Shown: positions 6,785 to 24,047 of the stretch, piece by piece | Layout of the letters: each line of letters opens with the position of its first letter | Position numbering within the stretch: position 1 is the stretch's first letter | Origin: an uncultured Acidiferrobacteraceae bacterium | GTDB taxonomy: Bacteria > Pseudomonadota > Gammaproteobacteria > Acidiferrobacterales > CAZCAK01 | Length of the DNA: 24,047 bases | Direction: 5' to 3' | Assembly (NCBI GenBank): GCA_964496605.1 | Contig: CAZCAK010000001.1 | Location: 1 to 24,047 of the forward strand | Position numbers and translations under genes: made by a program | Notes under the pieces: generated by a model | What the model was told of the DNA's origin: nothing | The model's input: the letters and a program-made list of their open reading frames with translations, nothing else | Database searches by the model: none

Positions 6785-7636
6785 CTAAAGCGCCTCACTA
6801 AAATGTGCGCGCATAATTTCGCGCATCGCCTCGGCGAGCTCGGCATCGTCGGTAACCGGATTTATCAGGGCGACTTCGCAGGCATCGAGCGGTGACAGGC
6901 CGGCCGCAATCATGTTTGCGGCATAAACTAAGGCACGCGTCGAGGTCGCTTCCTGCAAACCATGATCCTTGAGTACCCGCGCCTTGCGACCGGCGGCGAC
7001 AAGCTTGTTGATGATGTCGTCGCTTACGCCGGCGGCTTCATTTTTGACAACCTTGCGTTCGATGGCCTCGTTCGGATAGTCAAAATTAATACCGATGAAA
7101 CGCTGCTTGGTTGATGGCTTCAAATCTTTCAACACGGTTTGGTAACCAGGATTGTAGGAAATAACCAACATAAAATCTTCATGCGCCTCGATTTCCATAC
7201 CGCGCTTTTCCAATGGCAATTGGCGTCGATGATCCGTCAACGGATGAATCACCACGGTTGAATCGGTGCGTGCCTCGACGATCTCGTCGAGATAACAAAT
7301 CGCGCCGACCTTCACCGCGCGCGTCAGCGGCCCGTCTTGCCACACCGTCTGCTCGCCTTCTAACAAGTAACGCCCGACCAGATCCGAACTCGTCAGATCT
7401 TCGTGGCACGACACCGTGACAAGTGGCTTATTCAAGCGATGCGCCATATATTCGAGAAAGCGGGTCTTACCGCAACCGGTCGGTCCCTTGAGCATTACCG
7501 GTAAGCGCTTCTTGTAGGCCGCCTCGAAAATCACAACCTCGTTGGCCTGCGGTTCGTAATACGGCGCATCGCCGCTGCGCGGCTGTTGAATAATGTCGCG
7601 CTCGACACCGCGTAGGCGATTGATGAAATTCTTCAT
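6785..7636 (-). CDS. CbbQ/NirQ/NorQ-family MoxR AAA+ ATPase
   Basis: PYY..EV.IFEAAY..RLPVMLK, Walker [21 protein letters not shown], Walker [37 protein letters not shown]. Confidence 0.93.
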
Positions 7637-20642: not shown

Positions 20643-20677
20643 GGCGCGCATTATAGCGACTTCACTGCACGTCCCAA
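20643..20677 (-). promoter_or_regulatory. Candidate sigma70 promoter of rlmI (possibly leaderless)
   Basis: Minus strand TTGGGA (20677-20672), 16 nt, TATAAT (20655-20650), 7 nt, ATG (20642); no SD. Confidence 0.5.
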
Positions 20678-20695: not shown

Positions 20696-21520
20696 TTAAA
20701 AACCTCGCGGCGAAACCGTGCGTCGCCGGCTCGCCGCACGCCAAACCGCGGCCACGATCGGCAAGAGTCCGAGCACGCTGACCACGCTAGCGCCGGTCGG
20801 AAGATCACCGACGTAGGATAACCACAGCGCGACTGCGCTCGCGGCCGCGGCAAATGCAGCTCCGAGCGCCAGACGCTGTGCGAATCGAGTCACGATCAGT
20901 GAGGCGCTGAACGCCGGAATGATGAGATACGCGAACACCAACAATACGCCGGCGAGATCGAGCGCCAGCGTAATCACAATGGCAAATGAAACAAAAAACA
21001 GCGCCTCCCAACGAAACCGTGCCGGCATGTCTTCCTCGAATGACAGCGCATAGAACTGCCGCCGAAACGCCAGATGCAATAACGCCAACACGCCGTATAT
21101 GGCAGCGAGCAAACCGACATCGCGCCACTGTGTCCATAATATATTGCCGTTGAGCATCGCCTTGAGCTCTTCCATGCCGGAGCTGGAACGCGATAACACC
21201 ATCACCGACGCCGCGGTTGCGACGACATACACCGTACCAATCGCAACCTCGCGCGTGACCTTGTCGGGCACGCGCCGCAAGGCGGCGAACGCCAGCGCTG
21301 CGAGAATCGCCGCACCGAAGGCATAGGCATGCGCCGCCAGGCTATGCGCATCGTGGCCCACTAAGAATGCGACGCTGCTGCCGAATAAGGCCACCTGCGC
21401 CAACGCGATGTCAACGAAAATGATGCCGCGCGCCAACACATGCAAGCCGAGGTAAGTATGCGTCAGGATCAATAACACGCTCACTGCAAACGCCGGCGCG
21501 AGAATTTCCCAAGCGCTCAT
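20696..21520 (-). CDS. Metal ABC-type permease (ZnuB/MntB-like)
   Basis: Multi-TM protein; HVLARGIIFVDIALAQ, LAGVLLVFAYLIIPA, DLPTGASVV. 4-nt ATGA overlap with the binding-protein stop. Confidence 0.85.
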   Translation of the reverse strand: MSAWEILAPAFAVSVLLILTHTYLGLHVLARGIIFVDIALAQVALFGSSVAFLVGHDAHSLAAHAYAFGAAILAALAFAALRRVPDKVTREVAIGTVYVVATAASVMVLSRSSSGMEELKAMLNGNILWTQWRDVGLLAAIYGVLALLHLAFRRQFYALSFEEDMPARFRWEALFFVSFAIVITLALDLAGVLLVFAYLIIPAFSASLIVTRFAQRLALGAAFAAAASAVALWLSYVGDLPTGASVVSVLGLLPIVAAVWRAASRRRTVSPRGF

Positions 21521-22437
21521 CGCTTCGGCTCCAGCACACCGCTGGCGCGAATCGCGTTGACGATCGCATCGAATAAGCCGAGGTAATCTTTAATTTCCGG
21601 CGTCGCGCCAACCGATGCCGGCAGCACCGCGAGCTTGATGCCGCTTTGCGCCGTGAGAAAATCCGCCGAACGCCGTTCGTAATAAGGCTCTTCGATCAAT
21701 AAAGGAATGCGTTCGCGCTGGATGCGTTCGATTAATGCGCGTAAGTGTTCCGCATTCGGCGGGATGCCCGGCTTCGGCTCAACTTGATCGACAATCTCGA
21801 AACCGAAGGCACGCGCGAGATACACGAACGAGGTGTGATACGAAATCACCTTCGTGCCTTTCAACGGTGCCAACGCCGCGCTCCATTGCGCGTAGTGTTG
21901 GTCGATCGCCTTGCTGAAACTGTCAGCGTTAGCCTTGAACTGGGCGGCATGCGCTGCATCGAGCTGCGATAGTCGCTGCGCCATCGCCTGCGCCATGCGG
22001 GCGCCGTTGCGCGGGTCGAGCCAATAGTGCGGATTGCCTTCGGCGTGCACATCGCCCTGTGCGCGCGATACCAGTCCGTTGGGCTTATCCAATAATTCCA
22101 CGCTGGTGGATAAATCGAGATAGCCCGACGCACCTGGTTGCACCTTGCCATTGCGCGCGTTTTGCAATAACGGCGGCAACCAGCCCTGCTCCAGCGCCGC
22201 GCCGACGACGAATAAGGCATCGGCGCTATAGACCTTGCGAATCATGCTCGGCTTCGCCTCGGCGTAGTGCGGATTGGCGGCACCGCCGGTCAAACTATCG
22301 ACCTTCACGGCATCGCCGCCGACGCTGCGCGCGATCGCAGCGAGATCCTCAGTCGCGGTGACGATGTTCAGTTTTGCCTGCGCCGCAAGCGGTAGCGCAA
22401 GCACAATCATGGCGGTGATGATGCGAACTAAAAACAT
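21517..22437 (-). CDS. Zn/Mn-type (cluster A-I) metal-binding periplasmic protein
   Basis: Signal peptide (..AAQA), NPH, GDVHAEGNPHYWLDP, YHTSF, VEPKPGIPP. Start moved to 22437 (AAGGAG SD). Confidence 0.88.
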   Translation of the reverse strand: MFLVRIITAMIVLALPLAAQAKLNIVTATEDLAAIARSVGGDAVKVDSLTGGAANPHYAEAKPSMIRKVYSADALFVVGAALEQGWLPPLLQNARNGKVQPGASGYLDLSTSVELLDKPNGLVSRAQGDVHAEGNPHYWLDPRNGARMAQAMAQRLSQLDAAHAAQFKANADSFSKAIDQHYAQWSAALAPLKGTKVISYHTSFVYLARAFGFEIVDQVEPKPGIPPNAEHLRALIERIQRERIPLLIEEPYYERRSADFLTAQSGIKLAVLPASVGATPEIKDYLGLFDAIVNAIRASGVLEPKR

Positions 22438-22448
22438 AACGCACTCCT

Positions 22449-23672
22449 TTAGAATTGATGCGCGGCATGCGCGCCGAGCGAGAACTCGTATTGCATCCAT
22501 ACCGCGTTCACGTTTTTGTCGGCGAGTTGCGGCGCGAAGTCGCGATTATATTGCACGCGCAATTTACTGAACTCGGTCGGATACCAAGTGAGATTCGGCG
22601 CTAGGCGCCAACGTCGATTGCGCAGCGCATCGCTCGCGTCGCCGTTATTCGCCGTGGCATATTCGCCGCGCAAGGCCGCGACCCAGCCGGGCTTGTAGCC
22701 CCACAATACCTGCGTGTAGGCGCCATTATCTTTCAGCGTTTCGGTCGGCGTTTCGTAATTGCGCCATAGCCATTCGGTTTGCCAGGCGGTGAACGGGAAG
22801 CCGCGTGTGTTCTGTGCCGCCTTGCGCTTCACATACCAATCGACACCGAAGATATTCGTATTCGTATCGGTACCGGTTCCATTCGGACCGTGCAATGCGG
22901 ACATGCCGATATTGGCGCTGGTTTCGTCCGAGACATCGATGCCATTGAGCCAGCGCGCCGACCATAAAAGATCGCCGAAGCCGCGCGCGCCTTGGCGATC
23001 GATCAGCGTATGACCCGCGACCGTCTCGCCCGGATTCCACAGAAAGCTCGTCAGCGTATCGCCGCCGGCGTTTTGTGCGCCGAGATACAACTCCGAATAC
23101 CAAGGCAAGGGCGTCAGCCACGACACGCGTGCGCCGGTGCTGCGCAATCCGTCGGCGCCGAAAAAGCGCGTCAACACGATCGGCTGATCGACGAAGGCCC
23201 AGACGTGCGGATGTTGCGGATTTTGCCGACCGAATTCGGTGAAGTACTGTCCAGTTTTCACTTGCAGGCCGGCGGGCAAGGCACGCGTCAGTAGATACGC
23301 CTCCTCCAACTCGACGGCGGTCGCGCCGGTATCGTCGATGAGCGTGACGATATTCGCTTGGGCGTCGAAATAAGGATCGACCGCGCCACCGGCAATCAGC
23401 TCTAAGTTTTGCACGGTGAAGCCGTTGCGACGCGGATCATGCCCGCCGCCTTCGACGGTGCGCAGATCCGGATCGTTCACACCGGCGCCGCCGAAACTAA
23501 ACGTACCGGTTAGTCCGAGATTGAACGGTTGGCCGCTATTGGTTTGGCCGCTACTCGCGTTAACACCTGGCGCCGTAGACGACGGCATGGCGGCGTTATC
23601 GCTCGGCGCCGCGTTCGCGTCCAGGCCGGCAGTGCTACCGGCCAGTAATAAACACAGTGCATAAACACGCAT
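22449..23672 (-). CDS. Putative outer-membrane beta-barrel with His motifs, associated with metal uptake (407 aa)
   Basis: Signal peptide, alternating aromatic strands, terminal Phe; GGHDP, ELEEAY, GRQNPQHPH and GAHAAHQF motifs. Start moved to 23672 (GAGGAG SD). Confidence 0.7.
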   Translation of the reverse strand: MRVYALCLLLAGSTAGLDANAAPSDNAAMPSSTAPGVNASSGQTNSGQPFNLGLTGTFSFGGAGVNDPDLRTVEGGGHDPRRNGFTVQNLELIAGGAVDPYFDAQANIVTLIDDTGATAVELEEAYLLTRALPAGLQVKTGQYFTEFGRQNPQHPHVWAFVDQPIVLTRFFGADGLRSTGARVSWLTPLPWYSELYLGAQNAGGDTLTSFLWNPGETVAGHTLIDRQGARGFGDLLWSARWLNGIDVSDETSANIGMSALHGPNGTGTDTNTNIFGVDWYVKRKAAQNTRGFPFTAWQTEWLWRNYETPTETLKDNGAYTQVLWGYKPGWVAALRGEYATANNGDASDALRNRRWRLAPNLTWYPTEFSKLRVQYNRDFAPQLADKNVNAVWMQYEFSLGAHAAHQF

Positions 23673-23732: not shown

Positions 23733-24008
23733 TTAAGCGGGTGTGGGTGGACCGCGACTGCGGACAGCGGAGAGCGTGCGATGATAAAAAGTATTGCTGG
23801 ATATAAAAGGCGTCGGCGCGATACCCGGCACGACCACGGCGAGACCGATGCTCGGCATTGCCGCGCCCAGGGGCGCACCGGCGACACACCATTCACAAGT
23901 GTCACCGGCGACATGCGCCGCGATATCCTCTTGATGCACCGCCAGCGCCAGCTGCGCGAACAGCAGCAAAGCGATAAGGACAAAAAGTGAATATCGACGC
24001 GTGGTCAC
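23733..24008 (-). CDS. DUF2946-like small membrane protein/uORF with H-x6-H-x5-CxxC and C-terminal RGPP
   Basis: N-terminal hydrophobic segment (YSLFVLIALLLFAQLALAV), HQEDIAAH, CEWC, hydrophobic/Pro linker, RSRGPPTPA-stop. GTG 24008 preferred over TTG 24035. Confidence 0.78.
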   Translation of the reverse strand: MTTRRYSLFVLIALLLFAQLALAVHQEDIAAHVAGDTCEWCVAGAPLGAAMPSIGLAVVVPGIAPTPFISSNTFYHRTLSAVRSRGPPTPA

Positions 24009-24023: not shown

Positions 24024-24047
24024 GAAGGACCGCAAAATAGAAACGGC

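Follow-up and report, generated by a model that had tools for sequence, protein, structure and literature searches.

The window, as we call the whole stretch of DNA analysed here, is the entire 24,047-nucleotide contig CAZCAK010000001.1 from the metagenome-assembled genome (MAG) of an uncultured Acidiferrobacteraceae bacterium (540 contigs, 88.7% complete; genome G000 in the following), and it carries a locus that joins an outer-membrane barrel, a periplasmic binding protein and a permease of the ATP-binding cassette (ABC) type. Five genes follow one another on the minus strand in the order leader open reading frame (ORF), barrel, binding protein, permease and rlmI. An earlier reading of the sequence, referred to below as the original prediction, had described a metal-uptake operon of three tightly packed genes, bounded by a small upstream ORF and rlmI and devoid of an ATPase gene, and this anatomy is borne out by our analysis, including the coordinates and the spacing of the genes. 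The leader ORF (23733-24008, minus strand; about 91 codons), recognised as an ORF with its translation, is followed by the gene for a 16-stranded outer-membrane porin of 407 residues (22449-23672, minus strand), which starts at the ATG of MRVYAL, encodes a signal peptide and ends in HQF. From the porin stop at 22449 a gap of 11 nt leads to the gene for a periplasmic binding protein of the ZnuA family (21517-22437, minus strand; Pfam PF01297, 180 bits), whose TGA overlaps the ATG of the permease gene in the sequence ATGA, an arrangement of translational coupling. The permease itself (20696-21520, minus strand; 274 residues; Pfam PF00950, 92 bits) has the type II importer fold of the ABC-3 family and is assigned here to a D-x4-Q subfamily, and downstream of it lies rlmI with its PUA and methyltransferase domains. 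NCBIfam models returned only matches to AztB, AztC, ZnuB and ZnuA for the operon proteins, all of them far below threshold.

Absence of a linked ATPase gene

A profile constructed from the genome's own ABC ATPases gave no match in the window, not even with the threshold relaxed to E <= 10. The sole P-loop protein present is a CbbQ-like AAA+ protein (6785-7636, minus strand) with the Walker A motif GPTGCGKT, which is not an ABC ATPase and is unrelated to the transporter; the claim of the original prediction that the window holds no protein with a Walker A or LSGGQ motif therefore stands for ABC ATPases but not for the Walker A motif as such. As the contig stops approximately 40 nt upstream of the leader ORF, the absence of an ATPase gene beyond base 24047 has to be judged from related loci. 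On contig G007:C181, whose permease is 62% identical to that of the window, the same four genes lie between a divergent rlmI and a convergent bipA, so that the operon is complete there without an ATPase gene. On G039:C68 merC comes after the genes for the binding protein and the permease, and on three contigs, 2.5 Mb, 810 kb and 293 kb in length, a small ORF, an unassigned protein of about 400-460 residues, a ZnuA homolog and the ABC-3 permease stand alone, with no ABC ATPase within 10 kb save for an unrelated ABC-2 pair 8 kb off.

In order to place the locus in a broader context, one genome per species was scanned for the peptides HTY[LF]GLHVL and FVD[LI]ALAQ, which gave at least 594 loci in Proteobacteria, Acidobacteriota, Planctomycetota, Omnitrophota, Verrucomicrobiota, Methylomirabilota, Bdellovibrionota and other phyla. 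The best 80 of these at least 594 loci were surveyed, with a median flank of 8-9 kb per side. On the strand of the permease and preceding it, a ZnuA homolog is present in 78 of the 80 and a barrel homolog, directly upstream of the binding protein, in 72. Within 1.5 kb an ABC ATPase gene is found only at L113, where it is on the convergent strand; widening the distance to 5 kb brings the number of loci to three. For the control, 121 genomes of the same class supplied the best 30 canonical PF00950 loci, examined with a flank of only 1.5 kb, and 28 of them have an ABC ATPase gene (27 of 29 if L195, from the unpublished genome G147, is left aside); the control loci without one in this flank are L172 (G139) and L177 (G047). 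A cognate ATPase consistently linked in homologous loci, named beforehand as a finding that would speak against the original prediction, was thus not seen. A tblastn search of a plasmid collection with the permease gave no match.

These surveys bear directly on the possibility that an ATPase gene lies just past 24047 or was lost in assembly. The closeness of the contig end to the leader ORF, in a MAG of 540 contigs, would allow for it; however, in orthologs with full flanks (L053, L070, L072) the leader ORF comes first and the next gene upstream is unrelated or divergent, and 79 of the 80 surveyed loci are without an ATPase gene in 1.5 kb. We consider this explanation very improbable indeed: the missing ATPase is not an artefact of the contig end.

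Some further features of the neighbourhood may be recorded here. Genes for MerC, MerR, a CzcCBA-like resistance-nodulation-division pump, HupE/UreJ and a Fur-family regulator recur beside the module (L052, L072, contig of P0040). A second copy, of the type found in a distant clade described below, is located on G007:C27 (L054/L019), in a genome already holding the ortholog of the window's module; it is part of a 444-codon ORF, suggesting an extension, and no ATPase is encoded on that 14-kb contig. The rlmI gene adjoins the module in G007 too, but is divergent there and on the opposite side. In the window, a promoter-like site TTGGGA-16-TATAAT (10 of 12 positions; 20650-20677, minus strand) is found just past the permease stop and ahead of rlmI, which may have its own promoter there; terminator and promoter scans of the locus gave results at chance level only.

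Coupling loop and putative ion pathway of the permease

The AlphaFold2 (AF2) model of the permease (predicted local distance difference test score, pLDDT, 92.4) superimposes on PsaC with a Z-score of 25.2 and a root-mean-square deviation of 3.2 over 250 aligned residues. In ABC-3 permeases the ATPase is contacted through coupling helices, of which helix alpha2 comprises residues 154-162 in Escherichia coli ZnuB (PMC12236471), with equivalent helices in PsaC (PMC8346216). HMMER aligns this segment of ZnuB to residues ~161-170 of the window's permease. The corresponding loop remnant, residues 160-172 SFEEDMPARFRWE (21005-21043, minus strand), is shortened and contains no helix: the model has a 7-residue coil (162-168) between helices 153-161 and 169-207. 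Inspection of the coupling helix in a predicted structure, proposed along with the original prediction, thus reveals a coil where ZnuB has helix alpha2, and the EAA-like coupling helix, a defining feature of ZnuABC-type importers, is absent from the window's protein.

Comparison across the families shows how far this loop has drifted. It is exactly 15 residues long in canonical permeases (n=31), which carry the motif FDEE.AR..G[IV]P, while in the proteobacterial clade of the window (n=16) its length varies from 8 to 16 residues (median 12, the window's own 8 being the shortest) and the motif is lost. Members of a distant clade (n=47; Acidobacteriota, Planctomycetota and others) have loops of 13-15 residues and retain an E-A-x3-G motif. 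In a third clade, formed by relatives from the same order (L007-L010), about 26 residues are deleted and the entire helix is gone. Within the window's clade the loop is hypervariable, with a top-residue frequency of 0.45 as compared to 0.75 for the whole protein, and the Pfam ABC-3 profile breaks at ~146-168 in many gammaproteobacterial matches. In the phylogenetic tree the subfamily is monophyletic and set apart from canonical ABC-3 permeases by a long branch; the window's clade is supported at 0.98, and the deletion clade is placed together with the subfamily. Given both the decay of the loop in the window's clade and its deletion in the sister clade, the motor interface is judged, from alignment and tree, to have degenerated at least twice in a subfamily that is without a linked motor gene throughout. 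A degenerate coupling helix across the whole subfamily was also considered and had to be rejected, as the distant clade keeps the motif. The four deletion loci L007-L010 (from G004, G028, G006 and G023, respectively) keep the signature RGIxFxDLAxAQ and have an upstream binding-protein ORF and an apparent barrel fragment in their ORF lists; two of them adjoin a Fur-family gene.

Outside this loop the permease is well conserved, with a mean column identity of 68% among 28 relatives. Invariant in these sequences are H21, Y23, H27, R31, G32, D37 and Q42 in transmembrane helices TM1-TM2, E118, N124 and G125 in the gate helix and, elsewhere in the protein, R90, E91, H149, W171, E172, D239, L240 and P241. 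The signature HVL.RG.IFVD.ALAQ, pointed out in the original prediction, holds up in the alignment, its positions H27, V28, L29, R31, G32, I33, F35, D37, A39, L40, A41 and Q42 being invariant. It lies in the TM1-TM2 segment HVLARGIIFVDIALAQ (21395-21442, minus strand), where D37 and Q42 take the place of the canonical D-x3-H pair. This coordination pair, D46/H50 in PsaC (PMC8346216) and D36/H40 in ZnuB (PMC12236471), is essential for transport. According to the HMMER alignment Q42 corresponds to ZnuB H40 and PsaC H50, while D37 falls one position before the canonical aspartate, so the Asp-x3-His site is replaced by an invariant D37-x4-Q42. The pattern of conservation indicates that the permease is under strong purifying selection outside the coupling loop.

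To assess whether an ATPase encoded elsewhere might serve the permease, we turned to the genomes as a whole. G000 contains 27 ORFs with ABC ATPase domains, 18 of them stand-alone ATPase ORFs: FtsE, MacB-like, YbbA-like, PotA/Fbp-like, three of DrrA type, LptB, LolD, MlaF, PstB, LivF, LivG, ModC, NtrCD-type, GldA-like, CcmA and a UvrA fragment. None of the 18 is of the ZnuC type. The NCBIfam models NF007090 (ZnuC) and TIGR03771 (anchored-repeat ATPase) gave only generic ABC scores on this genome (100-122 bits), and we therefore derived a ZnuC-type profile, A3, from the sequences of 23 ATPases that adjoin canonical ABC-3 permeases (one row being from the unpublished G147). In the positive control G139 the profile scores 283 and 233 bits, in G164 302 bits and in G162 246 and 242 bits, in each case for ATPases beside canonical permeases, whereas its top scores in G000 are 164 bits (DrrA-type) and 157 bits (LptB), which corresponds to background. 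We further examined eight genomes that are 99-100% complete (G004, G055, G117, G052, G070, G087, G140 and G102; G004 and G055 are single contigs) and whose PF00950 matches are all of the divergent, low-scoring kind. The module of barrel, binding protein and D..Q permease without an ATPase was confirmed at the locus in seven of them, and at the locus of the eighth, G004, the binding protein and the D..Q permease are seen. In these eight module-only genomes A3 found nothing above background (<=166 bits, LptB/DrrA-like). The search for unpartnered ZnuC- or MntA-like ATPases that the original prediction had called for thus yields none of the ZnuC type, either in G000 or in the complete genomes.

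The original prediction had left two possibilities, an ATPase borrowed in trans or a permease that works without one. For the clade of the window we favour the second, because the coupling loop has decayed and the module-only genomes hold no ZnuC-type ATPase, while for the subfamily as a whole an ATPase in trans is possible, since the distant clade keeps an EAA-like motif without a linked ATPase. ATPases that serve several importers are familiar from sugar uptake (MsiK, MsmK), and a conventional ABC importer relying on a shared or non-cognate ATPase would be in line with genomes (G164, G162 and G160) that have, besides the module, a canonical ABC-3 system together with the ATPase of that system, as well as with the several stand-alone ATPases of G000 and the incompleteness of this MAG. 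On the other hand, such an ATPase would have to dock at a loop that is 8-16 residues long, hypervariable and non-helical in the window's clade and deleted in the sister clade; eight nearly complete or complete genomes have the module and no ZnuC-type ATPase; and most of the 18 stand-alone ORFs fall, by classification only, into families whose own partners are well known (FtsE, LptB, LolD, MlaF, PstB, ModC, CcmA). Taken together, we regard energisation in trans as unlikely.

Several points nevertheless weigh against a permease that operates without ATP. The distant-clade loci (L090-L152; Acidobacteriota, Planctomycetota, Omnitrophota and others) combine a loop of canonical length and the E-A-x3-G motif with the absence of a linked ATPase, which would fit the docking of a partner encoded elsewhere and suggests that in these lineages something still docks at the loop. 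Independence from an ATPase may then be recent and specific to certain clades, or a non-cognate ATPase may serve the entire subfamily. Profile A3 is a proteobacterial one and gave only 167 bits for the ATPase beside a canonical-like permease in the acidobacterial genome G160, so that the test is weaker outside the Proteobacteria. With the MAG at its present completeness, an ATPase gene of this organism could still be located on unassembled DNA. Finally, we know of no ABC transmembrane domain of this fold for which transport in the absence of a nucleotide-binding domain has been demonstrated.

Binding protein, porin and leader

The best solved relative of the binding protein is ZnuA of Synechocystis (1PQ4), with which the ligand motifs PH, PHYW and YH align. 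H58, H132, H138 and H202 do not vary among 27 homologs, nor does D130. H58, H138 and H202 align with the ligands in 1PQ4 and form a three-His, zinc-type site, whereas D130 and H132 are invariant additions relative to the Synechocystis protein; a His-rich loop is absent. Based on the three-His site and on the Fur-family genes beside several of the homologous loci, zinc is the most likely substrate, with copper as an alternative that is suggested by analogy of the leader to the CruR family (see below).

We modelled two copies of the permease together with the mature binding protein and obtained an ipSAE (interaction prediction score from aligned errors) of 0.70 in three runs, compared to 0.01 for the best of 3 controls; of 80 solved complexes 58 attain the mark for this score, as do 2 of 110 mismatched pairs, figures that apply only roughly here, since three chains and alignments of our own were used. 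At least 85% of the contacts recur between the runs, and the pLDDT of the partner is at least 82. In the model, residues 106-131 and 232-243 of both permease copies contact residues 54-68 (around H58), 223-234 and 253-264 of the binding protein, and docking is predicted to involve the gate helix together with the invariant loop D239-L240-P241. The modelling supports docking of the binding protein on the permease dimer, and the high score may reflect likeness to solved complexes of type II importers with their binding proteins.

For the outer-membrane protein, the AF2 model (pLDDT 85.1) shows a barrel of 16 strands without a plug and with a long loop after strand 5. Its best matches in the PDB are OprP, OprO, Omp32 and DcaP (Foldseek E 4e-12 and template-modelling score 0.56 to OprP), while no Pfam or NCBIfam family was matched, including TonB_dep_Rec and Plug. 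The protein departs in this from TonB-dependent receptors, which combine a 22-strand barrel with an N-terminal plug and a TonB box. The observation in the original prediction that tonB and exbBD are missing is correct, and with a plug-less 16-strand porin their absence needs no explanation. Between strands 5 and 6 of the model lies a His/Asp loop, residues 151-164 NPQHPHVWAFVDQP (23181-23222, minus strand), in which, among 40 barrel homologs, H154 does not vary and N151, H156, D162 and P164 show a conservation of at least 90%. By its position in the model, which is that of the L3 constriction loop of general porins, it would be a candidate metal filter. The porin ends in a conserved GxHxAHxF (22449-22470, minus strand; G400 and H402 invariant), which joins the phenylalanine of a typical beta-signal with two histidines. 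In its model the protein shares with OprP/OprO-type and general 16-strand porins the number of strands, the long loop after strand 5 and the lack of a plug; it differs from them in its low identity of 7-13%, in belonging to no Pfam porin family, in having His and Asp instead of an arginine ladder in the loop, and in being co-transcribed with an inner-membrane uptake system.

The leader ORF encodes an N-terminal hydrophobic segment, a CEWC motif and, 43 residues apart from it and three residues before the stop, RGPP. Against Pfam DUF2946 (PF11162) it scores 17.9 bits, below the cut-off of 23.7. At L082 a leader ortholog with CELC...RAPP precedes the module. In the CruR family the spacing from CxxC to R[AG]PP is 45 +/- 1-2 residues, and CruR shuts off a copper-uptake operon when the metal is present (PMC9426467). 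CruR (Bp2923) of Bordetella pertussis, encoded ahead of bfrG, is alike in its export-type N-terminus, its CxxC, the position of R[AG]PP three residues before the stop and its place as the first gene of a metal-uptake operon. The leader described here differs in being shorter (91 versus 145 codons) and below the Pfam cut-off, and in that porin, binding protein and permease follow it rather than a TonB-dependent transporter. In its sequence features it resembles the CruR/DUF2946 metal-sensing arrest peptides, and by analogy expression of the module is probably switched by it; a CruR-like, metal-repressed leader would fit an uptake system.

In another explanation the permease would no longer transport: together with the binding protein it would sense the metal, serve as a membrane anchor or sequester the metal, or else it would work in export. 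The change of the translocation site from D-x3-H to D-x4-Q and the loss of the motor interface could be understood in this way. However, it is the pathway helices and the periplasmic gate that are best conserved, with new invariant His, Asp and Glu residues in the membrane, no signalling domain is attached, and the gene is translationally coupled to that of a binding protein of the high-affinity type and to a dedicated porin, under a leader of the repressing type that suits uptake (PMC9426467). A role other than metal import consequently appears quite improbable to us.

Proposed transport mode and comparison with known systems

We consider it moderately likely that the module is a binding-protein-dependent but ATP-independent metal importer, probably for zinc. 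In the proposed mechanism, the metal would diffuse through the dedicated 16-strand porin with the conserved His and Asp residues of its constriction loop and would be captured in the periplasm by the three-His ZnuA-type binding protein. The loaded binding protein would then dock at the periplasmic gate of the permease homodimer with its ABC-3 fold, from where the ion could follow a remodelled pathway formed by D-x4-Q in TM2 and the newly fixed H21, H27, R31, H149, E172 and D239. Transport would be driven by the membrane potential or by protons instead of ATP. Import as the direction, zinc as the metal, membrane potential or protons as the energy source and gating by the binding protein are inferred. 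An inside-negative membrane potential favours the entry of divalent cations, as in the channel- or carrier-type metal importers ZIP and CorA, so that ATP should not be required on thermodynamic grounds. More generally, we see about an even chance that the D-x4-Q branch represents an ABC transmembrane domain turned into a binding-protein-gated, ATP-independent metal channel or secondary transporter, driven by potential or protons and coupled through its operon to a metal-selective porin.

An ATP-free mode of import has probably not been described for this transporter family; our literature search found no description of ATPase-independent transport by an ABC-3 permease or of ZnuB/ZnuC systems lacking the ATPase. 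There is a realistic chance that the module represents a new transport mode. If so, a type II ABC importer fold would for the first time be known to function in the absence of a nucleotide-binding domain, and nature would offer a case in which the membrane domain of an ABC system has switched its source of energy. ATP-driven transport is what defines ABC importers, and a widespread branch that retains membrane domain and binding protein without motor and docking helix would alter this view as well as the annotation of such genes, for which 'metal ABC transporter permease' is the name in present use. A zinc-type uptake route equipped with a porin of its own would then be indicated for many uncultured Gram-negative bacteria and for some cultured ones.

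Amongst the known systems, the ABC-3 or cluster A-I importers (ZnuABC, PsaBCA, MntABC, AztABCD; Transporter Classification 3.A.1.15) share with the module a binding protein of the ZnuA/TroA family with a three-His site and the type II fold of ABC-3 permeases, and a permease homodimer with a docked binding protein is likewise obtained in the model. The module departs from them in that a dedicated ATPase is neither linked to it nor found in the genome, in its shortened and degenerate coupling helix, in its D-x4-Q site and in the porin gene of its operon. With two parts in common and three defining features missing (dedicated ATPase, coupling helix and D-x3-H site), the module should not be filed as a conventional member of the ZnuABC group.

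A cluster of similar composition has been reported in Vibrio parahaemolyticus. In the published account, omr-znuAII-znuBII encodes an outer-membrane protein, a ZnuA-like protein and a metal ABC permease with no ATPase listed; the three genes belong to the Zur regulon, and their expression rises 283- to 1034-fold when zinc is limiting (PMC9817125). Its binding protein ZnuAII (Vpa1307) has three conserved histidines and is presented as a zinc transporter of a novel ZnuA subfamily (PMC3794297); both papers credit it with a contribution to zinc transport and virulence (PMC9817125; PMC3794297), and no discussion of the missing ATPase was met with in the passages searched. Going by these descriptions, and not by sequence, the cluster is alike in its published gene order and in its three-His binding protein, whereas its outer-membrane gene is annotated as TonB-dependent and the barrel described here is a plug-less porin. 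The Vibrio cluster may belong to the same type of module.

The principle proposed here, in which a membrane component that does not use ATP is supplied by a high-affinity binding protein in the periplasm, has its parallels in the tripartite ATP-independent periplasmic (TRAP) transporters and the tripartite tricarboxylate transporters (TTT), and the solitary S-components of energy-coupling factor transporters, BioY and BtuM, are precedents for the membrane part of an ABC system working without its ATPase. On general knowledge, the likeness to TRAP, TTT, BioY and BtuM is one of principle only, as their folds and ancestry are unrelated to those of the permease; if the proposed mechanism is true, the module would constitute a third kind of binding-protein-dependent uptake without ATP besides TRAP and TTT.

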